Of a stretch of 64,000 bases of DNA, positions 10,774-27,716 are shown one piece after another. The stretch lies in assembly GCA_964521625.1 (NCBI GenBank), contig CAZFSM010000014.1, forward strand, positions 27,061 through 91,060, written 5' to 3'. Position 1 is the first letter of the stretch; every line of letters begins with the position of its first letter. The stretch is from an uncultured Veillonellaceae bacterium. Lineage in GTDB: Bacteria > Bacillota > Negativicutes > UBA1444. The notes under the pieces were generated by a model, which saw nothing but the letters and a program-made list of their open reading frames with translations, ran no database searches and was not told the origin of the DNA. Made by a program: the position numbers and the translations under genes.

Positions 10774-11581
10774 GTGGTTCCTCCAATCCTGCCCCGATCA
10801 GCGCAAATGCCAGCACCAATGAAGATACGGCAATCCCCGGCGGCAACAGCCACCAGCTCCAGGTATCGAGATACGTAAACGCCAGCGCCTGTTGAATCAT
10901 TCTGCCCCAGCTCTGCGCCAGCGGATCGCTGATGCCGAGAAAGGCAAGTCCCGCCTCTAAAAAAACCGCCCGCCGGGCGTCATGGATCATCGCTGCCGAT
11001 AACACCGGCGCCAGGTCGGGCAAAATATGCCGCCTGAGCAAATACCAACGGCCCGCACCAAAAGTCCTTGCGGCTGTCACCGGCCCGGATTCCCTAAGCA
11101 GTAACGTTTGCGAACGCAGTAAACGTCCCGTGCCCGGCCAGAAAAAAAATGCCAGAATGCCCACCAGCATTAGCGAACTGGGCTGCAAATAGGCTGCAGC
11201 CAGCATAGCGGCTAAAATCGGCGGGATAACCAAACCGACGTCCATCATGCGGACCGTCACTCGTTCCAGACAACCGCCAGCCAACGTTCCGCCGGCGCCC
11301 AATAATGCGCCGAGCAGCGCAGAAACCAATGCCGCCCCCACCGCAACGCCTAGCGAGGTCCTCGCCCCAGCCATCAACTGGGACAGCACATCTTGCCCTA
11401 CATCATTTGTGCCAAGCCAATGAACCGCTGACGGCGGTAAAAACGCCTTGCCGCTGTAAGCATCCGGCGCATACGGCGTAGCAAAAGCACCAGCCAGCGC
11501 CACCGCTGCCCAGAAGCAAAGCAATAATAGCCCCCAGCGGCCAGGTCCGGTTTTTAGCTTTTTTCCGTATTGGATATGCAT
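10760..11581 (-). CDS. ABC importer permease (NikC/DppC-like)
   Basis: 273 aa with about 6 TM segments. It has the N-terminal WLGTNDVGQDVLSQL motif typical of DppC/NikC. It overlaps both neighbouring genes. Confidence 0.9.
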   Translation of the reverse strand: MHIQYGKKLKTGPGRWGLLLLCFWAAVALAGAFATPYAPDAYSGKAFLPPSAVHWLGTNDVGQDVLSQLMAGARTSLGVAVGAALVSALLGALLGAGGTLAGGCLERVTVRMMDVGLVIPPILAAMLAAAYLQPSSLMLVGILAFFFWPGTGRLLRSQTLLLRESGPVTAARTFGAGRWYLLRRHILPDLAPVLSAAMIHDARRAVFLEAGLAFLGISDPLAQSWGRMIQQALAFTYLDTWSWWLLPPGIAVSSLVLAFALIGAGLEEPHAAD

Positions 11582-12546
11582 AGTGTTTTTACCCTCGGAT
11601 CTACAATCGGATAGAGCAGTTCCAGCAAAAAATTGACCGCCAGCACCGTGACTGACGCCAGTAACAAAATCCCCTGCAATAACGGATAATCACGGGCGGC
11701 GAGCGCCCGATGCAGCAGCGAGCCCATGCCCGGGTAGCCAAAGATGACTTCAATCATTAAAATCCCGGCAAACAAATGGGACAAGTGCAATCCCGCCGAG
11801 GTAACGGCAGGCAACAGCACACTCCGGCCCAGATGCCGGTAACGGATGGAAGCTTCCGCACAGCCCTTGGCCCGGGCTGTACGGAGAAAAGGCGCCCGCA
11901 ACAGGCCGGCGGCCGAATTGCGGCAAAGCAGATACATGGTGGTCATGCGCGCCAACACCAACGAAGCAAGCGGCAGCGCTAAATGGCGCAGCACGTCTTG
12001 CCCCCAGGCCCAGCCGGCCTGCCCGCCATATACGGTAACCGCGCCACCTAGCGGAAACAGCGACCAGACCACAGCAAAGCCCAATAACAAAAGCGCCCCG
12101 ACAAAAAAGTCCGGCACGCCGCCGATCAGCATGAGGCTGGCAAACAGCCCCTTGTCCCAGCGGCTGCCTTTGCGCGCCCCACTCTCCAGCCCCAGTACAA
12201 AACCACCCACCGTCGAAAGCAAGAGTGAAGCTCCCGCCAGCAGGATCGTCCAGGGCAAAAATCCCGCCATGACCTTTGTAACAGGAGCATTAAAAAAGTA
12301 GGACCAACCCAGGTCGGCCCGTAATAACGAACCCAGATAGGCGAAAAACTGAGTGTCCCAGCTTTGATCAAGTGCAAAGCGCCGATAGATTTCGGATTTC
12401 ATCTCCGCTGTCATCGACAGTGCGGCTTCCTCGCCATAGATCGCCAGAAACGGGTCTCCCGGCAACAGACGCGGCAAAACAAACCCCAGCGAACAGAGGA
12501 TAAAAAAAGCGATGGCATAATCCGTAAGCAACCGGGAAATTCGCAT
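11554..12546 (-). CDS. ABC importer permease (NikB/DppB-like)
   Basis: 330 aa. N-terminal LPRLLPGDP motif and an EAA loop (FLRTARAKGCAEASIRYRHLGRSVLLP). Confidence 0.9.
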   Translation of the reverse strand: MRISRLLTDYAIAFFILCSLGFVLPRLLPGDPFLAIYGEEAALSMTAEMKSEIYRRFALDQSWDTQFFAYLGSLLRADLGWSYFFNAPVTKVMAGFLPWTILLAGASLLLSTVGGFVLGLESGARKGSRWDKGLFASLMLIGGVPDFFVGALLLLGFAVVWSLFPLGGAVTVYGGQAGWAWGQDVLRHLALPLASLVLARMTTMYLLCRNSAAGLLRAPFLRTARAKGCAEASIRYRHLGRSVLLPAVTSAGLHLSHLFAGILMIEVIFGYPGMGSLLHRALAARDYPLLQGILLLASVTVLAVNFLLELLYPIVDPRVKTLCISNTEKS

Positions 12547-12565
12547 TTTCTCCTCCCGTTAGAAC

Positions 12566-13180
12566 TTACCAGCCGCGCTGATACGGCTCGGCGCAGGCCA
12601 GGCAGACTTTTTTGCCATCGACCAGACGCAGTCGGGGTTCCATCGTGACTTCACCGCAAGCTTCGCAGGCAAAAGAATCAAAAATCCGGGCCCGTTCCGG
12701 CACAACAAAGGTTGGTGCTTTGATCGAAAAAAGTTCTTCATCGGACGCTGCCAGCATCTGGCGCATCCGCTCGGTTTTTTGCGCTTCAAACTGAGCTTTT
12801 TCATCAGCGGTCGCAGCGCCGGTCATTACTTTTTTGCGCAGCGCCATCCCTTCCGGCGAACTGGCGCCTGCCTGTCCTTTAAAAACAAGCCGGACCGCTT
12901 TGCCGGTATCACGACGGAAAATTGTAAACGCCTGTTTGCCCTGATCGCGGAAGATCAAATTCCCTTTGCCGATCGAACAGCCGAGCATCGATTGAATCGC
13001 ATCTACGCCGCAGGCATCATTTTCAACGACCGCCACCAGTTCCTCGTCCTTGTCGCGGTTAAGTTCCAACTCTCTAACCGCCAGTTTCGCCGCCCGATAG
13101 CCGATGATCAGGCCAGGGCAAACATGTCCGTGAAAAGTAATGACCGGTTTTAAATCCTCTGGAATCGTGAACGTTGCCAT
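12566..13180 (-). CDS. FmdE/FwdE-family protein with a C-terminal Cys4 zinc ribbon
   Basis: FHGHVCPG motif near the N-terminus. C-terminal CEACGE...CLAC. It sits between the SBP and permease genes of the ABC operon. Confidence 0.85.
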   Translation of the reverse strand: MATFTIPEDLKPVITFHGHVCPGLIIGYRAAKLAVRELELNRDKDEELVAVVENDACGVDAIQSMLGCSIGKGNLIFRDQGKQAFTIFRRDTGKAVRLVFKGQAGASSPEGMALRKKVMTGAATADEKAQFEAQKTERMRQMLAASDEELFSIKAPTFVVPERARIFDSFACEACGEVTMEPRLRLVDGKKVCLACAEPYQRGW

Positions 13181-13210
13181 GCAATATGTGCCTCCTTCAA
13201 TTTACGCTAA

Positions 13211-14818
13211 TTATTTCCCCTGCACAAATATCAGCTTGTTTTGCGGAATCGGCGCGCCATTGCCGACTCCCTGGAATGTATACCACAACCGCACTTTATC
13301 GTTGAAAGCCCAATAGGATCGCGGATAATATAACGGTAAAAACGGCAAATCACGCGCCGCCAGTTCCTGTACGCGATAAACCCAGTTGCGGCGAAGCGTC
13401 GGGTCCATCTCTGAGCGGCTCTTGTCCACCGCCTCCTGCCAATCCGCATCGCCTTGCCAGCGGGCGCCAAAAAAGATTTCCCGCGTCAGCAAACGACTGA
13501 ATGCTTCGGGGTCGCAGCCAAGCCCGCCGCTGCCGGTTAATGCCAACTGAAATTGCCAGGAATTCTGCCGGCTATCCACGGTTTTCGGGTCCATAACCCG
13601 CAAGTCAACCACGATACCCTCTTTAGCCAGCTTGTTCTTGATAAATTCGCCTTGCCGTTCGGAAGGCGCGCCAGTCATCGCCAAGCCACCCGAACCAACG
13701 AGCAGTTCCAGTTTTAATGGTTGGCCCGCTTTGACCCATTGTCCGTTTTGTTTAGTATAGCCGGCTTGCGAGAGCAACTTCGCCGCCTGAACCGGATCAT
13801 AGGGATATTTCCCCACGACTTGTGGATTGGTCCACGGGCTGCCGGGCGGCGCCAAGCCGGGACTGCCAGCAAGGCCATGCCCGCGCAGGGTTGTTTTTAC
13901 CAATTCCGGGCGGTCGATCAAATAGGCCAGCGCCTGACGCACTTCAACTTGATTTAATGGCGCCTGTCGATGATTCAATAGCAGGATGGCCACCCAGTCC
14001 CCTTCTTGCGAAATCAGCCTATAACCTTCTTTTTTCAGCGGTTCAGCCATATCCGGCGGAACCTGCGCCGCATCTACTTCGCCGCGCTTCAGCGCAGCTA
14101 CCGACATGTCCCAGCTCAACTTGACAAACCGCAGTTCCTTCACTCTGGCCTCCCCCAGATAGTGCCCCGGCACGGCGATGAACCGATAAGTCCCATGTTC
14201 TTTGCTATATTCCGCCAAACGATAAGGCCCGCTGCCCACAACGGCCGCCGGGCCGGTAAACCCTTTGGGGTCGGCTACGTCTTTCCAGATATGTTCGGGC
14301 AAAATCGGCACCGACGCAGCGATATAATCCAAAAACGGCGCGAAGGGTTCTGTCAAAAATATCTTTACTGTTGAGTCATCGACCGCCTCCGCGCGAATCA
14401 CCTGCGGCGTCGCGATATATGGGTACGGATGCTTTTTGTAGTATGCGAAGGAAAACACCACATCGCTGGCAGTAAACGCTACGCCATCATGCCACTTTGC
14501 ATCCTTTTGCAGCTTCATGCGCCAAGCTTTTTCGCCCGGTAGCCATTCCCAGGTTTTCGCCAAACCGGGCCCGTAGCCGGTTTCATTTTTCCAGACCAGC
14601 GTGTCAAAAACCAACGTCATGCGGATATAGCCAGGCCCGCGCAGATAATGGTTATAAGGATTGGGCAGTCCCCAATCGCCTGTCGTATCGGCAATCGTCA
14701 TAAGCCCGGGATCAGATTTTGCTGACGGCGCAGCAACTTTTTGATCTGACGTTCCGCCACAGCCTGCCGATAGCAACAACAGCGCCACCAGCAAACAGAC
14801 GGTCAGACAATTCATCAT
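13211..14818 (-). CDS. ABC transporter substrate-binding lipoprotein, family 5 (nickel/peptide/opine type)
   Basis: Lipobox LLLSAGCGG and family-5 SBP architecture (about 530 aa; ...KWHDGVAFTASDVVFSF...). The start is placed at the MMNCL ATG (14818); the ORF is open up to 14842. Confidence 0.85.
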   Translation of the reverse strand: MMNCLTVCLLVALLLLSAGCGGTSDQKVAAPSAKSDPGLMTIADTTGDWGLPNPYNHYLRGPGYIRMTLVFDTLVWKNETGYGPGLAKTWEWLPGEKAWRMKLQKDAKWHDGVAFTASDVVFSFAYYKKHPYPYIATPQVIRAEAVDDSTVKIFLTEPFAPFLDYIAASVPILPEHIWKDVADPKGFTGPAAVVGSGPYRLAEYSKEHGTYRFIAVPGHYLGEARVKELRFVKLSWDMSVAALKRGEVDAAQVPPDMAEPLKKEGYRLISQEGDWVAILLLNHRQAPLNQVEVRQALAYLIDRPELVKTTLRGHGLAGSPGLAPPGSPWTNPQVVGKYPYDPVQAAKLLSQAGYTKQNGQWVKAGQPLKLELLVGSGGLAMTGAPSERQGEFIKNKLAKEGIVVDLRVMDPKTVDSRQNSWQFQLALTGSGGLGCDPEAFSRLLTREIFFGARWQGDADWQEAVDKSRSEMDPTLRRNWVYRVQELAARDLPFLPLYYPRSYWAFNDKVRLWYTFQGVGNGAPIPQNKLIFVQGK

Positions 14819-14860
14819 TTCTTTTCCAATTCGCACTTGCAAAACATTGTCCCCCTTGCC

Positions 14861-15056: not shown

Positions 15057-16496
15057 TTACATGCCGATTTTTCTCCACACCAAAATCCGATAGGAGCCGA
15101 CTACTTCGCCGCTATCGAGTTGCAGCGGCGCTTCCATCGCCACGACATACTTGGGACTGGCCGCCACGGCAACGCAAGGTCCGGCCGCCGGTAGCCAATC
15201 GACCAGTTCCAGTTCCGGCGTCGACAATAGCGCAACACCATGAATGCTGGCATCTTTTGTCCGGATATTGCGCCCGACAGCCACTGCCAATTCCGGTCCG
15301 ACGGTTTTAATTTCCTCAATCATGCCGCCCAACTTGCGCCGTTTCAGCAAGTTGCCTTCCCGATCAAACAAAAACACGCTGTTGCTCTGGGGATGCTCCA
15401 CCGGAGTCGGCAGTTGCCAATTGGCCCGGTTATAAGTATTGCCGGTGGAAAAGATGGCATAGGGGCCGATATGTTGGGTGTGCAAACCGGTTGCATTGAC
15501 AAAAACCCCCTGAATTCGCTGCGGGGCGCTGAGCACCCGCGTCCAGAGCAACTTGCCGCCAGCATCGACAAAAAAAGCTCGTCCGTCTGCCGAGACGCCG
15601 CTCAAAACTTTGCCGTCCGTTGACCACTGGGGGCCAAACCGCATGTTGGTCCGTTCGTACGGTTCAACGGTCGCAGTATGGAGACTCCAGCGATATTGAC
15701 CTGTTTTGGTATCAAAAAGGTAAATATTATCCTTATATTTCCGATCTGGACCGGGTGTATAATCCGATGTGCTAAACACCAGATTATTGCCAGCCGGGTC
15801 GATGTCGCACCAGCTAACCCAGACATCCAGGTTGTGATCGCGGGGAAATAGTTCGACCCCGCCTTCGGCGTTAATTTTATAGATCCGGGCAAAATATTCA
15901 GTCTGACCGTTAGGGGACCTGATCGACCGCAGGGCAACAGCATAGGCGTTGCCGCTGTCATCCATCGTAATGGACATAATTCCGGGAAACGTCTTTTGCC
16001 GAATGTCTACGCCTAACTCTTCGACGCTATTGCGTCGCCACTTTTCACTGCCGCTGTTCGCATCCAGGCAAAACACGGCGCCCTGCTGACTATTTTCGCC
16101 GATCAATATCCGCTGCCCGTCCGGCGTATATTCCAGCGCACTGATTTTGCCCATGCCGATTTTGCGGCTCCATATTTGCGCGCCGTCGATACTGAACACC
16201 ATGACTTCACCGGTTTCCGTGCCAACGGCGATCCGGTCGCCCGCCGGTGACAGCCTGACCAGCCCCGGTGTCGACCCCATCTGGCGAAAGCCGCGAATTT
16301 CGACTTTGCCGAGTGGAATCTCGGCAACTTTTTCGTAGCGCCCCAACTGGCCCAACTGTTGCAATGGCGCTTTCCGGCCTGATTCCCGGCTGAGTTCAGG
16401 GAAAATATGCAGCGCCAGAAACCCTAAACTAATCAGGAATACTGAAAATAGCAAAATGAGCCGGATATTTTTGATGTTCATCCCGTTCACAGCCAC
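15057..16496 (-). CDS. Membrane-anchored extracytoplasmic beta-propeller protein (WD40/PQQ-like repeats), function unknown
   Basis: N-terminal TM anchor IRLILLFSVFLISLGFLALHIF. Blade-like repeats recur (VMVFSIDGAQIWSRK, AVFCLDANSGSEKWRR, IYLFDTKTGQYRWSL, AFFVDAGGKLLWTR, VFLFDREGNLLKRR). The start overlaps the ecfT stop by 10 nt. Confidence 0.65.
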   Translation of the reverse strand: MAVNGMNIKNIRLILLFSVFLISLGFLALHIFPELSRESGRKAPLQQLGQLGRYEKVAEIPLGKVEIRGFRQMGSTPGLVRLSPAGDRIAVGTETGEVMVFSIDGAQIWSRKIGMGKISALEYTPDGQRILIGENSQQGAVFCLDANSGSEKWRRNSVEELGVDIRQKTFPGIMSITMDDSGNAYAVALRSIRSPNGQTEYFARIYKINAEGGVELFPRDHNLDVWVSWCDIDPAGNNLVFSTSDYTPGPDRKYKDNIYLFDTKTGQYRWSLHTATVEPYERTNMRFGPQWSTDGKVLSGVSADGRAFFVDAGGKLLWTRVLSAPQRIQGVFVNATGLHTQHIGPYAIFSTGNTYNRANWQLPTPVEHPQSNSVFLFDREGNLLKRRKLGGMIEEIKTVGPELAVAVGRNIRTKDASIHGVALLSTPELELVDWLPAAGPCVAVAASPKYVVAMEAPLQLDSGEVVGSYRILVWRKIGM

Positions 16497-17374
16497 ACCG
16501 CCATAAAATCATAGACTCCGCGTAAGCGGGGAAAATAGGCAACCCCGTTGTGTTGCAATAAAAACAAAGTTTTCAGCACCGCCCCAGTAAAAATTGCGGC
16601 AAAAATCCCCGCACAGGCAAGTCGCTGCACCAGCGGCCAATTTGGCAACGTCGACTGGCGATTGCCGCGACCAAAACCCCTGCTCTCCACCGACAACGCC
16701 AGTGTTGCCGCCCGTCGCAACGAACGGGCCAGAATGGGAAACAAAACATAAAATGCCGTATTAACCCAGCGCACCGGCGACACACTGCGCATTGGCTCAA
16801 AACCGCGCAACCGCTGCGCCGTAAACACGATGGCCGTTTCTTCGAATATGACCGGTAAAAAGCGCAGACTGGTGATCAGCATAAAGGCAATCTCAAACGG
16901 CATCCGCCAATGCAAAAAGCACTGCAACAGCTGACGCGGATCGGTGGTCCAGCAGATGAGCAGGCCACAGGATAACATGATGCCGGAGCGCAGCGCCTGC
17001 ACTGCCCCATGCTCCAGCCCTTCCCTGTAAATGAAAATTCCGCCCGTCCATTCGCCGATCCACGGCGCGGACGGCGATATCAGGCAGGCGATCATGGTCC
17101 GCGGTTCCTGGTTATAAAATAAGGCCTGACTGACCATCGTCCCCCAGATTCCCACGAGCAGAAATATCGTCAGCACCTGCCAGCGCTCCACAGAAGACCG
17201 GGCCAGGAAATGCAATCCCAATGAAGCCAAAAATAAAATAAAGAGCGGCCTCGGCCCGTCAAGGCCGACGGCAAACAGCATGACCGCAGTCAAAAGCACC
17301 AGTTTGGTTCGCACATCCAGCCGGTGAATCGGCGTATCAGCCGGCGTGGCTTGCCAAATCTGTCTGTTGTACAT
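16487..17374 (-). CDS. ecfT: ECF transporter transmembrane (T) component, EcfT/CbiQ family
   Basis: 295 aa and polytopic. It has the two coupling-helix Arg motifs (FTAQRLRGF and LALSVESRGFG). It overlaps the ATPase gene. Confidence 0.85.
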   Translation of the reverse strand: MYNRQIWQATPADTPIHRLDVRTKLVLLTAVMLFAVGLDGPRPLFILFLASLGLHFLARSSVERWQVLTIFLLVGIWGTMVSQALFYNQEPRTMIACLISPSAPWIGEWTGGIFIYREGLEHGAVQALRSGIMLSCGLLICWTTDPRQLLQCFLHWRMPFEIAFMLITSLRFLPVIFEETAIVFTAQRLRGFEPMRSVSPVRWVNTAFYVLFPILARSLRRAATLALSVESRGFGRGNRQSTLPNWPLVQRLACAGIFAAIFTGAVLKTLFLLQHNGVAYFPRLRGVYDFMAVWL

Positions 17375-19028
17375 GCCGGACTACCTCCTCTACCCCGAGT
17401 GCGCAACCACCATATAGTCGCCGGGACAATAGCAGCGAAGTCGGCGGACGCAGTCCCGCTGTGTTTAGCATTGCATCCTGCGAAAACACCTCGCGCGGCG
17501 AAGCGTCGGCGACAACCCGTCCGCCTGTCATGACAATAACCCGCTCCGCATAACGGGCAGCGACTTCGGTATCGTGGGTGCAGAGAATGACTGTGCCGCC
17601 GGTTTGCGTGAACTCTTGCAGCAACTCGACAATATCGTCGATATGCCCCAAATCCTGGCCGGTCGTCGGCTCATCCAGCAGCATAATCTCCGGCTGGCAA
17701 GCCAGTAAGGAGGCGATCGCCACCCGCACCCGCTGCCCTTGACTGAGCGCCAGCGGAAAGCGGTCTTCCAGCCCGCCGAGGCCAATCCGTTCCAATAGCG
17801 GTCGCCAGCTGGCCAGGTTTTTGCCCCGTCCAAGCCCATGTTGCAAGCCAAACGAAATCTCCTGCTCGACTGTTGAATTAAACAACATCAGGTCAGGATT
17901 CTGCATGACCATCCCCACTCTGCGGTCCAGCGATTTCACGGTTTGTCCCAGCAGTTTTACCTGCCCTTTCTGGGTTTTCTGCAAGCCGCAGATATGGTTC
18001 AGCAAGGTTGATTTGCCTGCGCCATTGTTGCCCATCAACACGACAAATTGACCGCGGGGGATTGTCAGGTTGATCCCGTCCAGGACGTTGCCTTTTTTTT
18101 GATCATACTGAAATTCAAGATCTTGCACCTCGATAACCGGCGCAGCAGGTTCCGCGAGGCATTGTTGAGCAATTGGCCGGGGCTGCGCGCTGCAACCCGG
18201 ATACGCTTGGCTTATTTTCGCAAAGGCCGCATCCACTGTCGCGCTCTCCGAGGCCAGGCCCAGTCGGTGGCAAATATGAACCGTCTGCGGAATCCGCAGG
18301 CCCTGCCGCAAAAAAACATCCGGCTGGCAAAAAGCTTCCTGTTGCGTCCCTTGCCAGGCAATGCGCCCTTGTTCCATCACCATGACCTGCTTGCACATCG
18401 GCATGACTTCATGCAGCCTGTGTTCCACCACAATAATCGTGATTCCCAGCTCGGCATTCAGCTTTTGCAATACCTGCAGCAGTTCCATCGCGCCGCGCGG
18501 ATCCATTTGACTGATCGGCTCGTCCAGTGCCAGCACCTGCGGTCGTATCGCCAGTACAGCAGCCAGCGCCAACCGTTGGCGTTCACCGCCGGACAATGCA
18601 TGAACGCTGCCTTGTTCGCGACCGGCCAATCCCACCCATGCCAGGGTTTCCGCTACGCGCCGCCGGATTTCAGCCGGGTCCATCCCCATGTTTTCCAAAG
18701 CAAAGCCCACTTCGTCGGCAATTGAGGTCGAAAAAATCTGATCATCCGGGTTCTGAAACATTAGTCCGACTGTCCGGCTCAAATCTGCGACTGAAGATTG
18801 CAGCGAATCGACGCCGTTCACCCGGATACTGCCCTGCAGCGCGCCGCTGATTTCGTGGGGGATCAGGCCGTTAAACGCTTTGAGCAAGGTGCTTTTGCCA
18901 CAACCGGTCGGCCCGGTGCAAAGAATAAAATCGCCTGCATTGATTTGCCAATTAATATCGATCAGGCTGGGAGTAGCGCTATTTTGATAGGTGAACGAAA
19001 CATTGCGGCATTCTACGATCGTGCTCAT
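17337..19028 (-). CDS. Fused double ATPase of an ECF-type transporter (EcfA-EcfA')
   Basis: Walker A GPTGCGKST and GNNGAGKST; signatures LSGGERQRLALAAVL and LSQGQRVRVAIASLL; CbiO/EcfA-like Q-helix regions. Confidence 0.9.
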   Translation of the reverse strand: MSTIVECRNVSFTYQNSATPSLIDINWQINAGDFILCTGPTGCGKSTLLKAFNGLIPHEISGALQGSIRVNGVDSLQSSVADLSRTVGLMFQNPDDQIFSTSIADEVGFALENMGMDPAEIRRRVAETLAWVGLAGREQGSVHALSGGERQRLALAAVLAIRPQVLALDEPISQMDPRGAMELLQVLQKLNAELGITIIVVEHRLHEVMPMCKQVMVMEQGRIAWQGTQQEAFCQPDVFLRQGLRIPQTVHICHRLGLASESATVDAAFAKISQAYPGCSAQPRPIAQQCLAEPAAPVIEVQDLEFQYDQKKGNVLDGINLTIPRGQFVVLMGNNGAGKSTLLNHICGLQKTQKGQVKLLGQTVKSLDRRVGMVMQNPDLMLFNSTVEQEISFGLQHGLGRGKNLASWRPLLERIGLGGLEDRFPLALSQGQRVRVAIASLLACQPEIMLLDEPTTGQDLGHIDDIVELLQEFTQTGGTVILCTHDTEVAARYAERVIVMTGGRVVADASPREVFSQDAMLNTAGLRPPTSLLLSRRLYGGCALGVEEVVRHVQQTDLASHAG

Positions 19029-19031
19029 GGC

Positions 19032-20723
19032 TCAATCACTCCCTACGCCGGAAAGACGGGCGCCCAGCAATGCGCCGCACGCCGCGCCGATCATCGTGTA
19101 TAAGAACCCGTTGACAGCCATGACCATAAAGATATACCAATCGGCAAAAAACAGTCGATACAACACTGCCATCCCCTGCATCGTAACAAACGTCGCTATG
19201 GTATCGGCCAAAGCGCAAGCCAGCGCCAATGCGGCCATTCTGCGCCAGGAAAACGGCTCCGGCTCATTGGATCGGGGCGTAGCTGTCGTAAAGCCGAAAC
19301 CGGCTAACGCCAGTTCCAGTAAAAATGCATTGACCCCATAGGAAAGAAACACCAGCGGCGACATGTGACCAAACGCAAGCATGCCGAGCAGCAGGCGAAT
19401 CGCCGCCATTAAACTCACCACGCCGTGCAGCGGGATCAGTGTCACCAGCGCGCCGGTCAGCATATACAACATGATGCCACTAAACATACCGCTGATCAGA
19501 AAACTAAACGGCCCCAAAAAGATGTGCAAAAAATCGTTCAGCAAGGTCGACGGCACATTGACGACCGCGAACGCGCAAGTGCCAAATAAGGCAATCGTGA
19601 TCAGTCGCCGCGTCTTCATGCCGGCCAATACCTGCGGCATTTTTCGGCTGATCAGCAGCAGAAACGCCAGCAGCATCGCCACGCCGGCTCCCAGCGTCAG
19701 CATGCCGCGCATATTTTTTTTGATGACCGTCAGCGGCAGTTCCTGCGACCAACTCTGCGTTTCGCCGTCCTCTACGGTCACCCGCAGCAGATAGCTGCCT
19801 TCCGTCAACTGGGTTTCATCGGCGTAAATCGGCAACAATAAGCGTTGACGCGGCTCACCGCTCAGCGCAACAAATGCGGTCAGTCGCTCCTGACCGGCAG
19901 CCATGGCCCCGGCGCCATCATGTTCCGAGTTGCTGCCAGGCGTATACAGGCCGGCGACTCTGCGCCGAATATTCTTGTCAATCAATTCGGCCTCCACCAT
20001 CAGCAGTTTTTGCTGTCCGGCAGGATTGCTAAAGTCCAGACCCATATGGGATACCGGGTGAATCGCTTCAATCTCCAAATTGGCCGTGCCTTTGCCGCGC
20101 AACACATTTTTATAGTAGTCGAGCGAACGGTCACGCAGAACCAATGTATTGGCATTTTGTTTTTCGTCGCGCAAGCCGTCACGGTCAAGTGGCAATACCA
20201 CCCGCTCCAGCACCGGTTTGGTCTTGGCCGAGACTCCGTCCGTGCGCGGCGCCACCTTTACCCGCACTTCCCGGCTGATTTCTCCGGCTGTAAGACGGGC
20301 CAAATAGACGCCTGCCGCAGCTTGCTCATCGACCGACACCGACAACAAATCAAACCACTGCCCATAGCCGCCGGCTAACTCCATCTCCCGCTGCATCAGC
20401 TGATTTGCCGAGCTGGCGCTTTGCAAGACGGTCCAGTGCTCCGGTTTGCCTTCCACCTGAAATCCCTGCGGCAGTTCCAGCCGCACGGTAACCCGCTGCG
20501 GCTCCGGTCCCGCGTTTTCAATATTAAACATGGCATGAATCCGCTGCCCCGGTGCAACTGTCATTTGTCTGCCTGCCAACGAATAAGGAAGCTCCAGCGA
20601 AAGCTGAAGCCCTGCAGCAGCAAAAGTATGCGCCGGCAATAGCAGGCATATCGCTAGTGCCGCCAGCAATAACCGGCGCACTATTACTAAAGTCGAACCC
20701 ATTGATTCATCCCTTTCACTCAT
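19032..20723 (-). CDS. Signal peptide + extracytoplasmic domain of about 330 aa (beta-sandwich-like) + C-terminal multi-TM module occupying the ECF S-component position
   Basis: Signal LLLAALAICLLLPAHTFAAAG. CARDB/NEW3-like strand pattern (RIHAMFNIENAGPEPQRVTVRLELPQGFQV; GSYLLRVTVEDGETQSW). Then about 7-8 hydrophobic helices over the last 230 aa. It is located between tonB and the ECF ATPase with overlapping or adjacent stops and starts. No family was recognised with confidence. Confidence 0.6.
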   Translation of the reverse strand: MSERDESMGSTLVIVRRLLLAALAICLLLPAHTFAAAGLQLSLELPYSLAGRQMTVAPGQRIHAMFNIENAGPEPQRVTVRLELPQGFQVEGKPEHWTVLQSASSANQLMQREMELAGGYGQWFDLLSVSVDEQAAAGVYLARLTAGEISREVRVKVAPRTDGVSAKTKPVLERVVLPLDRDGLRDEKQNANTLVLRDRSLDYYKNVLRGKGTANLEIEAIHPVSHMGLDFSNPAGQQKLLMVEAELIDKNIRRRVAGLYTPGSNSEHDGAGAMAAGQERLTAFVALSGEPRQRLLLPIYADETQLTEGSYLLRVTVEDGETQSWSQELPLTVIKKNMRGMLTLGAGVAMLLAFLLLISRKMPQVLAGMKTRRLITIALFGTCAFAVVNVPSTLLNDFLHIFLGPFSFLISGMFSGIMLYMLTGALVTLIPLHGVVSLMAAIRLLLGMLAFGHMSPLVFLSYGVNAFLLELALAGFGFTTATPRSNEPEPFSWRRMAALALACALADTIATFVTMQGMAVLYRLFFADWYIFMVMAVNGFLYTMIGAACGALLGARLSGVGSD

Positions 20724-21391
20724 TACCGCAAATCAAAGACAACTGGCACAGTTGCCCAGGCCGCAACCGGACTGCCATTTTTCAGCGCTGGGCTGAATCG
20801 CCATGACCGAACGGCCCGCTGCGCCGTCTGGTCCAGTTCGGCGTAGCCCGAGCCGGCGACGATGCGTACATCTTCAACCCGTCCGTCTGTATTGACCAAA
20901 ATCTGAAGCTTCACAGTGCCTTCCCAGCCTTTAGCCCTTGCATTCTCAGGATAGTCCGGTCTGCCGCCGTCGACGATGCGCGGCCCGCGAGTCGTTCCTG
21001 TTCCTGTACCTGGGCCTGGCCCTACGCCGGTTCCTTTGCCGTTGCCATGTCCGCCGCCGGTTCCTCCGCCGCTACCTCCCATACTCGAACCACCTGAGAC
21101 TGCGGCAACCGCTTGCGGGGCAACCTGATCGGAAAAACCACTCGCTGGCGGCGGCTGTGACTGCGGCTGGTGCTTGACAGGATCGGGGGCGCGCTCCGGT
21201 TGTCCCCCGCCACCGGCAGGACCGTCCAGCGGCGCAAACAATTCCGCCATGCTCACTTCTACATAAATCGGCTGACTCGATTGCATGACGTCCCAGTGCC
21301 AAAACAAACTAATCCCTGCAAACAGCCCGACATGCAGCAGCAGCGAACCGGCTATTGCGGCTCGCCACCGTTTGTTACCCCGCATTATCAA
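20723..21391 (-). CDS. tonB: TonB energy transducer
   Basis: N-terminal anchor (AAIAGSLLLHVGLFAG), a Pro/Gly-rich linker, and a TonB C-terminal domain (PDYPENARAKGWEGTVKLQILVNTDGRVEDVRIVAGSG...AVRSWRFSPA). Confidence 0.85.
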   Translation of the reverse strand: MIMRGNKRWRAAIAGSLLLHVGLFAGISLFWHWDVMQSSQPIYVEVSMAELFAPLDGPAGGGGQPERAPDPVKHQPQSQPPPASGFSDQVAPQAVAAVSGGSSMGGSGGGTGGGHGNGKGTGVGPGPGTGTGTTRGPRIVDGGRPDYPENARAKGWEGTVKLQILVNTDGRVEDVRIVAGSGYAELDQTAQRAVRSWRFSPALKNGSPVAAWATVPVVFDLR

Positions 21392-21789
21392 CCCTTAGGG
21401 TCGACGGCCAGTGATATTTTACTGGCGCCGGCTCGTTTCACGGCATCGATCACTTCTACGACCTTGCCGTGCTGCGAATCTTTATCCGCCTTAATAAAGA
21501 TCAGCGGGCTGTTATGCGCTTTGGTCGCAACGGTTGCTGCCAGGTCGCCGAGCGATATCACTTTATCGCCCAAGGCAATCTGCCCCTGCCGGTTCACCAA
21601 GACGGTGATGTGTTCCGGCGGTTGCGGCGTCCCGCTGCTTGCCTGCGGCGGCGTAATATTGAACCCTGGATGGGCAACCAGAAAGGTTGTAGACATCATG
21701 AAGAAAATCAGCAGCAACATCATGACATCGACCATCGGCGTCATATCAACATGAACTGGCAGATGGTTCGAAGAACGCCTGGTTCGCAT
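21388..21789 (-). CDS. exbD: Biopolymer transport protein ExbD/TolR
   Basis: 133 aa. VDMTPMVDVMMLLLIFFM motif plus a periplasmic domain. Overlaps tonB by 4 nt. Confidence 0.9.
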   Translation of the reverse strand: MRTRRSSNHLPVHVDMTPMVDVMMLLLIFFMMSTTFLVAHPGFNITPPQASSGTPQPPEHITVLVNRQGQIALGDKVISLGDLAATVATKAHNSPLIFIKADKDSQHGKVVEVIDAVKRAGASKISLAVDPKG

Positions 21790-21806: not shown

Positions 21807-22400
21807 TTATACGCCGGCCCGGCGAACAATTTCGCCGACGCAGCCTTCGGTCCAGTGCAATAAACGCTCCACCCGGTTGCGAAAATGATTGTTGGCAATG
21901 ATGCAGGGAATGGCTACAAGCAATCCACCGGCTGTATTGTATAACGCTTCGGAAATACCGGCGGCAAGCATCTGCGGATTGCCGAGGCCAGTCATCGAAG
22001 CCGCTTGAAAGGTTTTGATCATTCCCAGCACCGTCCCCAAAAGACCGAGTAGCGGCGCTACGGTCGCAGCGGTCGTCAATATATACAAGTTGCTTTCAAA
22101 CAGTGGGGTTTCGGCCCGAACAGCATCGTCGACTGCATTTTGACGAGCATCGCACTCACAAGCCGGGATCATCGCTGCTGCAGCCCACATCTTGCCGTAA
22201 ACGCTCCGCCTCACCGACTCTTCCGCAAAGGTTGCCGCAACATTGGCGCTCGGATCGGTCAACAGCGCCCTGATCCTGGCCGACTGCGAATCGGCCGATC
22301 GGTAATATAGCCAACGTTCGATGATGACTGCGCAAGCCACCAGCGAACAGGCCATAATCGTGATGATGACCCAACCGCCTTTTTCAAGGATATCCAGCAT
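21807..22400 (-). CDS. exbB: MotA/TolQ/ExbB proton-channel protein
   Basis: 197 aa with 3 TM segments. Conserved C-terminal half (APLLGLLGTVLGMIKTF...ISEALYNTAGGLLVAIP). Confidence 0.9.
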   Translation of the reverse strand: MLDILEKGGWVIITIMACSLVACAVIIERWLYYRSADSQSARIRALLTDPSANVAATFAEESVRRSVYGKMWAAAAMIPACECDARQNAVDDAVRAETPLFESNLYILTTAATVAPLLGLLGTVLGMIKTFQAASMTGLGNPQMLAAGISEALYNTAGGLLVAIPCIIANNHFRNRVERLLHWTEGCVGEIVRRAGV

Positions 22401-22413
22401 GTGTAAGCCCTCC

Positions 22414-24330
22414 CTAAAAACTCTGGCTCAGTTTCAAGTAAAATGCCCGTTCTGGTTGTAAATAGTGCGACGTGCCGTTTGACACCACATCCCGGCGGTC
22501 CAGCAGATTCTCCACCCGCAGTTGAAGCTGTGTATTCTTGGCCAGCTGATACTGCAGCACCAAATTGATCGGCAATGTCGGCTCCAATCCATCCTTGCGG
22601 CCTGCCAGATAATTTGCCGTCAAACTGCTCTGCCACTTACCCGATCGATATGTCAAGCCGCCGTTCAATTGAAACTTGGCGAAGGTTGGCGTCCAGTCGC
22701 CGCCGTCACGACGCTCTTCCGGGTTATTGATGTTTGCTCCCAGATTGAACATCCAGCGTTTGTTTACACGGCGGTCGTAGGTGACTTCCAGACCAGTATT
22801 GCGAAAATCCGAATTATAAGGGCTATAAACATTGGTTGACACTTGTTCCCATTGGATATAGTTTGTAAATTCCATTCGATATAAGGCGATTTTCAACGAA
22901 TCAGCAGTACCGATTTTTTTCCAACCCACCTCGTAAGTATAGCCATATTCCGGTTTCAAATTGGGGTTGGCTGTTTTACGCCAGGTCGATCCATACATAT
23001 CCGATAAATTGGGCATGCGAAAAGCTCTCCCGACGTTGAGATACAACGACTGTTCCTTATTCAGGCTATGCAGCAACTGTAGCTGGGGATTGAATTCATT
23101 GTAATCATTCGCGCCGGCCTGTTGCCGGATGAATTCCTGCCGCGCCCCTACAATCAGATTAGTTTTTGCCGAAAGCGGATGGTTGACCTGGGCGAAAACA
23201 GAATAAAAATCTCGCTTCTTGAGCGACAAATAGGCTGATGAAGCATTTGTCTGGGCATAAAAACTTTCATCAGCACTGATAGCGTCGTTTTGCCACGACA
23301 CTCCAGCCAGGTACTGGCCAAATTTTGTCTGCCAGCTGGCCTGGCTGTCCAGCCCCAAGGTGCCAAAATAGGTGGTATTATCACCGGATCGAACGCCAGC
23401 AGACGTATATTTGCGATACTGCCTGGCCGACCAGTTGCCGTATGCTTTGGTTAGCCAACTTCCATGCTTGATCTGCAAGGAAACTGAATTTTTGACATCT
23501 TTTTGCGCAATCCGCTCATCCAGTGTATTGCCGATTTCCTTCATCCGTTCCACATTGAATTCATCAGAATCATATTGGTGAGTCAACGTCATCGCATCAT
23601 TAATTGCCCAGGCCCAGCGCAAAAAATTGCGTTCTTCGCCACGAAACGCCGTATATTTTCGATTCAGGCCGTTGCTTGACCAAGGCTCGCTAATCGCCCC
23701 CATATCGCCCACCTTTTCATGGCTGGCGGTTATAGAAAATTTGTCGGCCTGTAATGAAAGGTTTTGCCGATTAGTGCCAAAACTGCCTGTCTCCGCTTCA
23801 ACACTATTTTTCACCTTTTTCTTCGTGACAATATTGATGACCCCTCCCATCGCCGAAGAACCGTACAACGTCGAAGAAGCCCCTTTGATTATTTCCACCT
23901 TCTCAATATTGTCGGGAGGAATATGCTCCAGTGCATAATAACCGGAAAGATTGGTCGGGATGCCATCCAGCAAAATCACCGTGCCGCGATCCATCCCTCT
24001 GATGACGATTTTTGCCGTCATCGACGAATATAGATGGCCCATCGCCCCATATCCGTCATACGTCAGTCCGGTGGCAAACTTCAGCGCTTCCAGCAAATTT
24101 GACGCCCCAGTTTCTTTTATCTGCTCGCCAGTCAGTACTTGAACCGACGCCGCCGTTTTCAAGTCCTTCGACTCCCGCCGCATAGCCGTCACCACCACAG
24201 GATCGAAGTTATATTCCTGCTTCTCCTCTGCACTTGCCAGTCCCGGTATCCCCGCACAGAGAGCCCCTACGATTACGCCAGCCATCGTTCGCCTCGCCCA
24301 GTTACGAGCATATTTTTTGCTCAGTTTCAT
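22414..24330 (-). CDS. TonB-dependent outer-membrane receptor, BtuB-like by riboswitch context
   Basis: Signal peptide; TonB box FDPVVVTA; plug domain (LTGEQIKETGASNLLEALKF...VIRGM); a beta-barrel of about 22 strands ending in a terminal Phe (LKLSQSF). The ATG at 24330 has an AGGGGAG RBS. A cobalamin riboswitch lies upstream. Confidence 0.9.
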   Translation of the reverse strand: MKLSKKYARNWARRTMAGVIVGALCAGIPGLASAEEKQEYNFDPVVVTAMRRESKDLKTAASVQVLTGEQIKETGASNLLEALKFATGLTYDGYGAMGHLYSSMTAKIVIRGMDRGTVILLDGIPTNLSGYYALEHIPPDNIEKVEIIKGASSTLYGSSAMGGVINIVTKKKVKNSVEAETGSFGTNRQNLSLQADKFSITASHEKVGDMGAISEPWSSNGLNRKYTAFRGEERNFLRWAWAINDAMTLTHQYDSDEFNVERMKEIGNTLDERIAQKDVKNSVSLQIKHGSWLTKAYGNWSARQYRKYTSAGVRSGDNTTYFGTLGLDSQASWQTKFGQYLAGVSWQNDAISADESFYAQTNASSAYLSLKKRDFYSVFAQVNHPLSAKTNLIVGARQEFIRQQAGANDYNEFNPQLQLLHSLNKEQSLYLNVGRAFRMPNLSDMYGSTWRKTANPNLKPEYGYTYEVGWKKIGTADSLKIALYRMEFTNYIQWEQVSTNVYSPYNSDFRNTGLEVTYDRRVNKRWMFNLGANINNPEERRDGGDWTPTFAKFQLNGGLTYRSGKWQSSLTANYLAGRKDGLEPTLPINLVLQYQLAKNTQLQLRVENLLDRRDVVSNGTSHYLQPERAFYLKLSQSF

Positions 24331-24483
24331 TTGCCACACTCCCCTAACCAAGTTTTTATACTGCCATCAGTGCAACCGCTCCTGTTGTCGGAACGGATTA
24401 TTTTTATCTGGAGGCTCCCCTGCAAAAGAGCCTCCGGCTAATGAATCCACGCCAAAAGCTAAAATGGCGTGAAATCCGGGGAA

Positions 24484-24522
24484 CACAAAAAAAGAATAGC
24501 CCCCTGGAATGGAAGCTATTCT
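24484..24522 (-). terminator. Second terminator-like hairpin + U-run in the long leader
   Basis: Minus strand agaatagc-(14 nt)-gctattct, followed by tttttttg. It lies between the riboswitch terminator and the receptor start codon. Confidence 0.4.
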
Positions 24523-24540
24523 GGACAGCCGGCAACTTTT

Positions 24541-24572
24541 TGATAAAAAATCCCGGCAAAAAAATTGCCGGG
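24541..24572 (-). terminator. Riboswitch expression-platform intrinsic terminator
   Basis: Minus strand cccggcaa-ttttt-ttgccggg, followed by attttttat. It is immediately 3' of the cobalamin aptamer. Confidence 0.7.
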
Positions 24573-24629
24573 AAGAAGTTCAACACAGGAGCTGTGCAAA
24601 AATCCCCTCCCCATCGCGCGTGGGTAAAA

Positions 24630-24805
24630 ACGGTGATTGTCGAACAGGCAGTTCTCCTGGCTCTGGATCATAGCTCGCCCAAACCTTCCCAAGATTTTCA
24701 TCCCAGTGGTATAAAATGGGTTTGCTCCCCAATACAGTGGCGGGACCGCGCCGGCATTACACCGGACTTCCCTATTAAGCCCTTGCGGGCACCTATCCCG
24801 GTATG
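24630..24805 (-). promoter_or_regulatory. Cobalamin (B12) riboswitch aptamer
   Basis: The minus strand reads ggtgcccgcaagggcttaatagggaagtccggtgtaatgccggcgcggtcccgccactgta...ccactgg...gggaagg...AGCCAGGAGAACTGCC. This gives the conserved AATAGGGAA / GGTG-AA-CC / GCCACTG core and a B12 box (24662-24647). Confidence 0.9.
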
Positions 24806-24837
24806 AAATTGTCAAACGAACTCGGATTACGGTTTGA

Positions 24838-24866
24838 ATATTACCACAGAGATTTTAGCGTGTCAA
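24838..24866 (-). promoter_or_regulatory. Sigma-70-type promoter driving the riboswitch-led operon
   Basis: Minus strand TTGACA (24866-24861), a 17-nt spacer, then TAATAT (24843-24838). It lies about 30 nt upstream of the aptamer. Confidence 0.55.
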
Positions 24867-26536: not shown

Positions 26537-27716
26537 TTGAAAAAAGAGTTGTCACGGATGGATCTTCCCGTGTATGTTGAAGGTGCTAGCCAAAACAACA
26601 CGAAGGAGCTGAACAAGATGCTGGACGCCGAGGCGGATCAACTCACCAATGCCGGCAAGTATGAACGTACAGAAGGAAGAAAAGACACCTGCGCCGGCCA
26701 TTATCAGCGCAAACTCACCACCAAGGCAGGTGAAGTGACCTTGAACGTTCCCAAACTTCGCCATCTTCCTTTTGAGACCGCCATTATCGAACGCTACAAA
26801 CGGCGGGAAAGCAGTATTGAAGAAGCCCTTATCGAGATGTACCTGGCGGGAGTTTCTGTTCGCCGGATTGAAGATATTACCGAAGTCCTTTGGGGTAGTA
26901 AAGTTTCTGCCGGAACCATCAGCGAGATGAACAAGAAAGTCTATGGTCACATCGAAGAATGGCGAAATCGCGAGCTCAAATCAACCTACCCTTTATGTCT
27001 ACTTTGGCGGTATCTATCTAAAGCGCTGTTGGGGCGGTTCATACGACAATGTAGCCATATTGGTGGCCTTGGCAGTAGATGAAGATGGCTATCGGGAAAT
27101 CATCGGTTGCGCAGAAGGCGGTCGGGAAGATAAGGAAAGCTGGTTGAACTTCCTACGCTGTTTGAAAGAACGAGGTCGCTCCGGCATGAAACTCAGTGTT
27201 GCAGATCGCTGCCTGGGCTTTGTTGAAGCCCTCGGAGAAGTATTTCCAGACTCGAAGTTTCAGCGCTGCGTCGTTCATTTCTACCGAAACAGCTTTTCGG
27301 TAACCCCTCTTTCTAAGAGCAAGGAAGTGGTCGCCATGCTCAAAGCGATTCACGCGCAGGAAGATCTGGAGAGTGCGCGCGAGAAATCAAAGTTGGTCAT
27401 AGAAAAACTCAAAGGAATGAAACTCCCTGAAGCAGCCAGTCGACTGGAAAAAGGAATTGAGGACACCATAGCATACATGAACTTCCCCCGGGAACACTGG
27501 GGCAAGATACGGACCAACAATGGATTGGAGAGAATCATGCGAGAAATCCGCCGCAGAACGAGGGTGGTGGGAAGTTTTCCAGACGGGAAATCGGCTTTGA
27601 AGCTGGTAGGAGCCAGGCTTCGTCATATTACGACAACCAGTTGGGGGACGAAGCGACATTTGAATATGGCACTGCTCCAGGAAAAACAGGCCGATGGCGT
27701 ATCCGAAGCTATCTGA
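26537..27716 (+). pseudogene. IS256/Mutator-family transposase, frameshifted near 26990
   Basis: Frame 1: ...AGKYERTEGRKD..YQRKLTTKAGEVTLNVPKLR...LIEMYLAGVSVRRIEDIT...WRNRELKSTYP. Frame 2 continues LYVYFGGIYLKRCWGGSYDNVAILVALAVDEDGYREIIG...FQRCVVHFYRN...IRTNNGLERIMREIRRRTRVVGSFPD. Confidence 0.85.

Follow-up and report, generated by a model that had tools for sequence, protein, structure and literature searches.

A 64,000-nucleotide (nt) stretch of DNA from an uncultured Veillonellaceae bacterium (GenBank assembly GCA_964521625.1, contig CAZFSM010000014.1, positions 27,061 to 91,060; the whole stretch is called the window here) carries on its minus strand, at 19032-20723, an open reading frame (ORF) of exactly 563 amino acids (aa), which is the target of this analysis; the plus-strand frame is full of stops. 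An initial annotation, made from the sequence and giving no strand, had located this ORF and described its product as a secreted beta-sandwich domain fused to a membrane module in the S-component position of an energy-coupling factor (ECF) transporter. Our analysis indicates that the target is probably the S subunit of a dedicated, group-I-type ECF importer with four parts (S, a fused EcfA-A', EcfT and an anchored extracytoplasmic beta-propeller), in which a corrinoid would be handed to the S subunit from outside the membrane. A corrinoid is the most likely substrate, with cobalt as the main rival.

The usual S component is a compact bundle of six (5-7) membrane helices with both termini in the cytoplasm; it binds its substrate by itself with high affinity and, in group I, shares an operon with EcfT and EcfA/A'. 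It is small (about 160-230 aa) and has no soluble domains, and its system works without an extracytoplasmic binding protein. The target departs from this type, since it is 563 aa long with about 300 aa of extracytoplasmic beta-sandwich and has an extracytoplasmic propeller as partner.

Domain layout and predicted fold of the target

The N-terminus of the target, MSERDESMGSTLVIVRRLLLAALAICLLLPAHTFAAAG, is a Sec-type signal peptide, and both the end of this peptide and the two other peptides quoted in the initial annotation are present in the translation. The whole protein was modelled with AlphaFold2 from an alignment of 35 sequences (mean predicted local distance difference test score, pLDDT, 83; predicted template-modelling score, pTM, 0.69). 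The model shows a signal helix (aa 8-28), beta-sandwiches at aa 39-157 and 171-334, and seven transmembrane (TM) helices between aa 338 and 559. The latter agree with the 7-8 hydrophobic C-terminal helices annotated initially and, by both model and topology, consist of one extra helix (TM0) plus six. The layout is as follows:

20616-20723, minus strand: Sec-type signal peptide, aa 1-36, ending in …LLLPAHTFA/AAG (LLLPAHTFAAAG)
20253-20609, minus strand: first immunoglobulin (Ig)-like beta-sandwich, aa 39-157, the least conserved folded domain
19722-20213, minus strand: second beta-sandwich, aa 171-334, with a family-wide P-x-D-x-x-G motif (P178, G183) and invariant P298 and G309
19626-19712, minus strand: TM0, an extra linker helix, aa 338-366, which returns the chain to the cytoplasm (15-28% identity)
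19047-19613, minus strand: six-helix S-component-like module, aa 371-559, the most conserved part, with invariant G434, G452, E470, R523 and W529

Homologues begin at the equivalent of M8, which may be the true start. TM0 is followed by a strongly basic loop, SRKMPQVLAGMKTRR, and because this loop is so strongly positive the N-terminal domains are placed outside and the C-terminus inside. The target therefore has its ectodomain outside, TM0 crossing from out to in, and six helices with both ends in the cytoplasm, which is the topology of an S component.

Since the Foldseek search with the whole model hid the membrane part, aa 335-563 were modelled separately (26 sequences; pLDDT 88, pTM 0.84) and compared with the PDB by Foldseek. 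The best match was 5edl (TM-score 0.56/0.64, root-mean-square deviation (rmsd) 4.2 A over 199 columns, probability 1.0), deposited as 'an S-component of ECF transporter' and which we take to be YkoE of Bacillus subtilis, the S component of a group-I system. The only other matches with low rmsd were to FolT in 9kym and 4huq (TM-score 0.53, rmsd about 3.6 A). For NikM2, a metal S unit present in the PDB as a truncated metal transporter (4m5b), the TM-score was 0.44 with an rmsd of 11.5 A; the Mce1 chain 8fed_K gave 0.37 with 9.7 A, and the remaining matches (G-protein-coupled receptors, rhodopsins and others) stayed below 0.3 at about 15 A. The S-component identity proposed in the initial annotation was thus recovered by remote homology at the level of fold, and the gene context described below agrees with it. 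By its predicted fold and its context the C-terminal module is a divergent S component that stands outside every curated S family.

Sequence comparison gave weaker signals in the same direction. When 37 diverse members of the family were scanned singly, the commonest weak Pfam match was PF09819 (ABC_cobalt), presumably the family that includes YkoE, which was found in 7 of them (best E-value 0.0019). Sub-threshold matches to TIGR02185 (MptD/Trep_Strep putative S component, E-value 0.0027) and to CbiM occurred in single members, and one partial homologue bears the PGAP name 'MptD family putative ECF transporter S component'. The window protein itself had no match in Pfam or NCBIfam, and a word-indexed profile search with the C-terminal alignment returned no stand-alone S relatives, just 12 fragments of the same family.

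S components dock on the coupling helices of EcfT through a surface formed by TM1 and TM3, and an A-x-x-G-x-x-A stretch is visible in TM1 of the module (A378-G381-A384). Residues invariant throughout the family are, in addition to those of the S module listed above, P46, P178, G183, P298 and G309 of the ectodomain. His400, Cys503 and Asp507 of the S module (nt about 19203-19525) hardly vary within the Negativicutes clade; in some other members His400 and Cys503 tend to occur together, and both are absent from a distant clade linked to CobN. The presence or absence of this pair may mark two substrate or ligation subtypes, the cysteine ligand of BtuM (PMC6072759) being the comparison for Cys503.

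In the close and the wide set of homologues, respectively, the S module had a mean identity of 60% and 41% to the window protein, the second sandwich 55% and 28%, the first sandwich 35% and 20%, and TM0 28% and 15%. The low identity of TM0 suggests that it acts as a passive linker, with the membrane-proximal sandwich under real constraint. This order of sequence conservation (S module, second sandwich, first sandwich, TM0) fits a functional ectodomain held on a simple linker tether.

The Foldseek search with the whole model returned only tandem Ig-like or fibronectin type III (FnIII)-like proteins (RbmA, enterococcal WxLIP, integrin and transglutaminase beta-sandwiches, MG domains), with modest TM-scores of 0.30-0.35 on the target. 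The N-terminal part had initially been compared with CARDB/NEW3-type domains. Its beta-sandwich character stood, the model having tandem Ig-like sandwiches there, but the CARDB/NEW3 identity was rejected, because NPCBM_assoc/NEW3 matched just 3 of the 37 members with E-values of 0.088 or worse. WxLIP_HBD (PF11797) matched two members weakly. As modelled, the ectodomain is a generic two-sandwich tandem Ig-like fold, from which no binding function can be read. One loop of the second sandwich (aa 264-276, nt about 19896-19934; …TPGSNSEHDGAGAMAA…) has a pLDDT below 50 and is flanked by the nearly invariant T261, P262 and G272; being conserved and apparently flexible, it could be a contact site.

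The operon and its cobalamin riboswitch

The target lies in a minus-strand operon with the following features:

24838-24866, minus strand: sigma-70-like promoter (TTGACA-17-TAATAT with an extended -10 TG), just upstream of the riboswitch, from a consensus scan only
24630-24811, minus strand: cobalamin riboswitch aptamer heading the operon (RF00174, 110.7 bits against a gathering score of 31.5, full-length match)
24493-24573, minus strand: pair of terminator-like hairpins with T-runs, lying between aptamer and first gene, from a pattern scan
22414-24351, minus strand: TonB-dependent outer-membrane receptor, 645 aa, BtuB-sized, with plug and barrel domains
21807-22400, minus strand: ExbB
21388-21789, minus strand: ExbD
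20723-21391, minus strand: TonB
19032-20723, minus strand: target
17337-19028, minus strand: fused EcfA-A' ATPase, 563 aa, with two ATP-binding cassette (ABC) domains (TIGR04520 and TIGR04521 above cut-off)
16487-17374, minus strand: EcfT/CbiQ transmembrane coupling subunit, 295 aa (PF02361, 104 bits)
15057-16496, minus strand: membrane-anchored periplasmic BamB/PQQ-like beta-propeller (PQQ_2), 479 aa

The riboswitch at the head of the operon gives the link to B12 that the initial annotation had supposed, and the two hairpins probably form its expression platform. For the receptor, the sole full-length NCBIfam alignment was to TonB-B12 (TIGR01779), below the cut-off, and the best PDB match was BtuB of Escherichia coli (E-value 5.5e-15), just marginally ahead of the haem receptor PhuR. 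The ExbB, ExbD and TonB genes that follow it constitute a dedicated energizer for this receptor.

The TonB gene shares 1 nt with the target, a gap of 3 nt separates the target from EcfA-A', and EcfA-A' and EcfT overlap by 38 nt and EcfT and the propeller by 10 nt. Since the genes from TonB through the propeller overlap or abut, there is no room for another S gene, and the target is the only S-like gene of this tightly, translationally coupled cassette with EcfA-A' and EcfT. Its position directly before the A-A' and T genes is as described in the initial annotation.

A conserved four-gene cassette

The gene order around the target was compared among related loci, using 70 loci with at least 5.5 kb of downstream sequence and 62 loci with at least 4 kb of upstream sequence. 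EcfA-A' was retained in 68 of the 70, EcfT in 69 and an adjacent propeller in 68. The propeller gene lies downstream of EcfT in 61 of these 68 loci and immediately upstream of the target gene in the other 7, and every propeller protein starts with a hydrophobic anchor or a lipobox. The beta-propeller is an obligatory fourth component of the ECF system. Neither this partner nor TM0, the poorly conserved linker before the six-helix S module, had been mentioned in the initial annotation.

In profile searches of the PDB the propeller matched BamB and PQQ-type propellers and designed 'Cake' proteins. Homology to the B12-binding propeller BtuG was considered and has no sequence support: BtuG was absent among the best 60 of 293 PDB profile matches (E-values up to 1) and among 35 single-sequence matches.

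Size and spread of the family

A word-indexed search found 104 close homologues, and all the named ones come from Negativicutes and are labelled 'hypothetical'. An exhaustive profile search gave 490 clusters at 50% identity with E-values of 1e-3 or lower, 304 of them with 1e-30 or lower. Many of the clusters contain proteins of 560-680 aa that match from the second sandwich onwards and have a different N-terminal region, often with a lipobox; ten distant representatives showed no Pfam domain. Neither Pfam nor NCBIfam has a model for the family, whose members are nearly all annotated as hypothetical. Our literature searches turned up no description of an S component with a large fused ectodomain, nor of an ECF system in which a propeller is obligatory.

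When one genome of each GTDB species was scanned, 327 proved to carry relatives, and with so many homologues the observation is well outside what chance would give. The best 80 of these genomes belong to Sporomusaceae, Phascolarctobacterium, other Acidaminococcales and Selenomonadales, Syntrophobacteraceae and one metagenome-assembled genome (MAG) of Actinomycetes, and a further homologue is present in Candidatus Oleimmundimicrobium (Actinomycetota). According to the initial annotation a periplasm-facing domain would make sense in a diderm cell supplied by a TonB-dependent receptor. The window, with its receptor, agrees with this, but the arrangement is not general: a same-strand receptor was found nearby in just 32 of the 62 loci, and the Actinomycetota MAG members have none in the flank. 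These members weaken the idea of a strictly diderm adaptation, with the reservation that MAG binning errors are possible.

Four loci (related loci carry L numbers here) come from 'cleanbin' records titled Bacteroidaceae, Segatella copri, Escherichia coli and Bacteroides sp. (L037, L043, L049 and L052). They are essentially identical to Phascolarctobacterium loci (L049 compared with L048 and L050), and they are very likely mis-binned contigs, not genuine occurrences in those taxa. In the distant clade (L079 6206-7933, L080 6182-7864, L070 5874-7571; alignment columns 40-190) both the S-fusion and the propeller proteins start with a lipobox, and each has at its N-terminus an additional domain of about 100 aa, absent from the window versions.

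B12 regulation and neighbouring genes

A same-strand B12 riboswitch was detected by nhmmer upstream of the cassette in at least 34 of the 62 loci, a lower bound. With cmscan, riboswitches were located immediately in front of the cassette, or of its receptor, in L001, L003, L004, L015, L053 and L058, whose hosts include Sporomusa sphaeroides, Methylomusa, S. ovata and P. faecium; none was found by cmscan within 8 kb in P. succinatutens or in four distant-clade loci. In Sporomusaceae, three or four full-length cobalamin riboswitches stand within a few kb of the cassette, each before a different short operon, and such dense arrays were seen at L001 6018-9840, L015 6006-7694 and 15559-15740, L021 2998-7534 and L013 4534-7769.

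A CobN-like gene was present in 15 of the 62 loci and a ChlD-like gene in 10. In the distant clade the gene order is receptor-CobN-propeller-target-A-A'-T in L079 and propeller-target-A-A'-T-CobN in L070. In several phyla the cassette is bordered by genes for cytoplasmic CobN-like proteins (1238-1304 aa; divided between two ORFs in L070) and by ChlD-like genes (L079 2176-6090; L070 12179-16090; L001 16722-20438; L058 94-1413), which resemble the BtuS/HmuS genes of Bacteroidota receptor loci. The idea that a periplasmic CobN-like de-chelatase frees metal for the ECF system was unsupported, as the CobN-like neighbours have neither a signal peptide nor a TM segment. Other neighbours of the cassette include CbiK, CobA/BtuR, BtuF-like binding proteins, FecCD, a BacA-type ABC protein, radical-SAM enzymes and ABC-2 systems; the CbiK, CobA/BtuR, BtuF-like and CobN-like genes among the neighbours add to the B12 link. 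At L004 17660-20452 (a Negativicutes MAG) a 580-aa SbmA_BacA-type ABC protein lies beside the cassette and adjoins a CobA/BtuR gene preceded by a riboswitch. SbmA_BacA is the family of the mycobacterial B12 importer Rv1819c, and the L004 protein is a second candidate for an inner-membrane corrinoid route in the same neighbourhood.

Other features of the window

Downstream of the propeller, and separated from it by 214 nt with a promoter-like site (15011-14983), a second, Nik-like importer follows (9082-14842, minus strand):

13211-14842, minus strand: NikA-like binding protein (SBP_bac_5)
12566-13180, minus strand: FmdE and DksA/TraR zinc-ribbon protein
11554-12546, minus strand: NikB-like protein
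10760-11581, minus strand: NikC-like protein
9082-10773, minus strand: fused NikD/E-like ATPase

This importer may or may not share the transcript of the ECF cassette. Its FmdE/zinc-ribbon gene stands between the binding-protein and the permease genes, and the SBP5/FmdE pair recurs near the cassette in Sporomusa (L006, L016, L017 and L021). Three ORFs of the cluster, those for the NikDE-like ATPase, EcfA-A' and the target, are exactly 563 aa long. Since the two ATPases are just about 25-29% identical, the equal lengths are a coincidence and not a sign of duplication. At 26537-27716 on the plus strand, about 1.7 kb upstream of the riboswitch promoter, there is an IS256/Mutator-family transposase in the form of two overlapping ORFs (181 aa and 257 aa); the 257-aa ORF matches profile positions 162-371 of 379, and the transposase is probably frameshifted or decayed.

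Substrate and role of the system

Several of the findings count against a corrinoid-importing S subunit. No family member passes the curated threshold of any Pfam or NCBIfam S-component family, and HMMER single-sequence and profile searches, with the whole protein and with aa 335-563, matched no solved S component, CbrT included. The propeller, judged by sequence, is BamB/PQQ-like, with BtuG absent among the listed matches. The distant clade (Syntrophobacteraceae and the Actinomycetes MAG) has no riboswitch in 8 kb and is linked instead to CobN-type chelatases. Finally, the Nik-like importer stands in the operon region of the window and BtuF/FecCD-like or BacA-like importers stand beside the cassette at other loci, so that the ECF system need not be the corrinoid route.

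These other importers bear on the main rival, which we regard as unlikely: a cobalt (or nickel/cobalt) ECF importer in which the ectodomain and the propeller take the role of NikK/NikL or CbiN, the receptor imports a cobalt chelate and the metal feeds CbiK/CobN-type chelatases. Where candidate corrinoid importers of the BtuF/FecCD-like or BacA-like kind lie beside the cassette, metal would be left as its cargo; the Nik-like importer of the window points the other way, since it is already present downstream. Chelatase genes (CbiK, CobN-like, ChlD-like) recur beside the cassette and one member has the sub-threshold CbiM match, whereas the predicted fold of the S module is much closer to the vitamin-type YkoE and FolT than to the metal-type NikM2. 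The protein has no free N-terminus of the CbiM type because its N-terminus is the 330-aa domain, and the family has no invariant cluster of His, Cys and Asp, its invariant S-module residues being E470, R523, W529 and glycines. The receptor, moreover, is BtuB-sized. The riboswitch is compatible with cobalt as well, given that B12 riboswitches commonly control cobalt importers and that NikKMLQO systems under such control have been described (PMC2667541, PMC7689651).

Import of another tetrapyrrole or metallo-tetrapyrrole (haem, a metal-free corrinoid or a porphyrinoid) is, in our judgement, quite unlikely; a cytoplasmic CobN/ChlID-type enzyme would then metalate or de-metalate the cargo, as HmuS/BtuS of Bacteroidota do, and the B12 control seen in Negativicutes would be one specialization. 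The case is strongest for the distant clade, where CobN-like genes directly flank the cassette (L079, L070), and it draws on the CobN-like and ChlD-like genes counted above, on the radical-SAM genes nearby and on PhuR as the second-best PDB match of the receptor. In receptor-linked operons, HmuS/BtuS proteins, which are CobN-like, act as haem de-chelatases (PMC12583661, PMC6460266). The CobN-like neighbours, having no signal peptide, are nevertheless uninformative on which species crosses the membrane, and the cobalamin riboswitch that regulates the window operon and most Sporomusaceae loci speaks for a cargo that raises the B12 supply.

It is very improbable that the module is not a transporting S subunit and that the ECF motor drives extracytoplasmic work of the ectodomain and propeller, either by mechanotransmission, as in MacB and LolCDE, or by scaffolding to the receptor. 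S components topple by roughly 90 degrees, a movement that a tethered ectodomain of 300 aa and an extra helix might impede, and the propeller is an obligatory partner of the BamB type, which is known as a scaffold. However, conservation within the protein is highest in the six-helix module, which retains the S fold, the context of riboswitch and receptor points to uptake, and to our knowledge all known ECF modules are importers.

Proposed mechanism and significance

The target is a chimera: its cleavable signal peptide exports the two Ig-like sandwiches and TM0 brings the chain back, to be followed by the YkoE-like six-helix S module with both termini inside. The window system is probably turned on at B12 scarcity by the promoter, the cobalamin riboswitch and its terminator-type platform, the cassette being co-transcribed with the BtuB-sized receptor and the receptor's own ExbB-ExbD-TonB. 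The receptor would bring a corrinoid (a cobamide, cobinamide or related B12 precursor) into the periplasm, where the ectodomain, the propeller or both would retain it close to the membrane and transfer it to the S module. Powered by EcfT and EcfA-A', this module, presumed to assemble physically with EcfT, would then topple in the manner usual for ECF systems and release the corrinoid into the cytoplasm.

The defining traits of ECF transporters are the absence of extracytoplasmic binding proteins and the small size of the S units, which topple within the membrane. The target family, with 490 clusters and 327 species representatives, departs from both hallmarks, having an S unit with about 300 aa outside the membrane and a propeller in the system. 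We tentatively suggest a fourth ABC-importer architecture, namely an ECF system with re-acquired extracytoplasmic capture. Here the Ig-like ectodomain and the obligatory anchored propeller would form a built-in device for binding and hand-off, which in diderms would take corrinoids from the TonB-dependent receptor, and TM0 and the tether would force a modified toppling. Negativicutes, gut Phascolarctobacterium among them, might take B12 across the inner membrane mainly by such a system. If the proposal is true, it would show the coupling of an ECF system to outer-membrane TonB-dependent uptake in diderm Firmicutes, provide a candidate for the inner-membrane step of B12-related uptake in Sporomusa and gut Phascolarctobacterium, and offer a genetic entry point to the puzzling CobN-like (BtuS/HmuS-type) genes found with B12 and haem receptor loci.

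Comparison with known systems

The best structural matches of the ectodomain were WxLIP (PDB 9i1y) and RbmA. In WxLIPs, too, a signal peptide and two beta-sandwiches precede a membrane anchor; the likeness is one of generic fold only, at the TM-scores given above, and carries no functional inference.

CbiM and NikM have seven TM helices, a free extracytoplasmic N-terminus inserted in the metal site, and a CbiN, NikN or NikKL partner. The NikKMLQO and CbiMNQO systems, like that of the target, are dedicated ECF operons with extra, partly extracytoplasmic parts, for which they are the precedent, and some of them are under B12 riboswitches (PMC2667541). NikK, NikL and CbiN are, however, separate small proteins, and where CbiM and NikM bind metal by the free N-terminus the target has a 330-aa domain behind a signal peptide. 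Pfam and NCBIfam scans of the window proteins and the family members gave no match to the NikK or CbiN families.

The closest functional analogue, the cobalamin/cobinamide importer ECF-CbrT of Lactobacillus delbrueckii (PDB 6FNP; PMC5997447), is likewise of the ECF type and, judging from the B12-linked context of the target, probably shares its class of cargo. CbrT, unlike the target, is a small group-II S unit without an ectodomain that works, in a monoderm, with a shared general ECF module; it was not detected from the target in sequence profile searches of the PDB and was not among the top Foldseek matches.

The BtuB-BtuG/BtuH loci of Bacteroides (PMC10404256, PMC8941943) resemble the window locus in riboswitch control, a BtuB-type receptor, an accessory beta-propeller and Ig-like accessory domains, and they are the precedent for such accessory proteins in B12 capture. 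BtuG, however, is a surface lipoprotein that caps the receptor at the outer membrane, whereas the window propeller is anchored in the inner membrane, is BamB/PQQ-like and is tied genetically to the ECF genes and not to the receptor.

YkoE, of the group-I thiamine-precursor ECF system YkoEDC, is the closest structure and has the six-helix fold and a dedicated operon with its own A and T genes in common with the target. The target has no significant sequence similarity to it at curated thresholds, and differs from it in having a signal peptide, about 300 aa of sandwiches and an extra TM helix, in belonging to a different regulon, that of a B12 riboswitch, and in the addition of a propeller partner.

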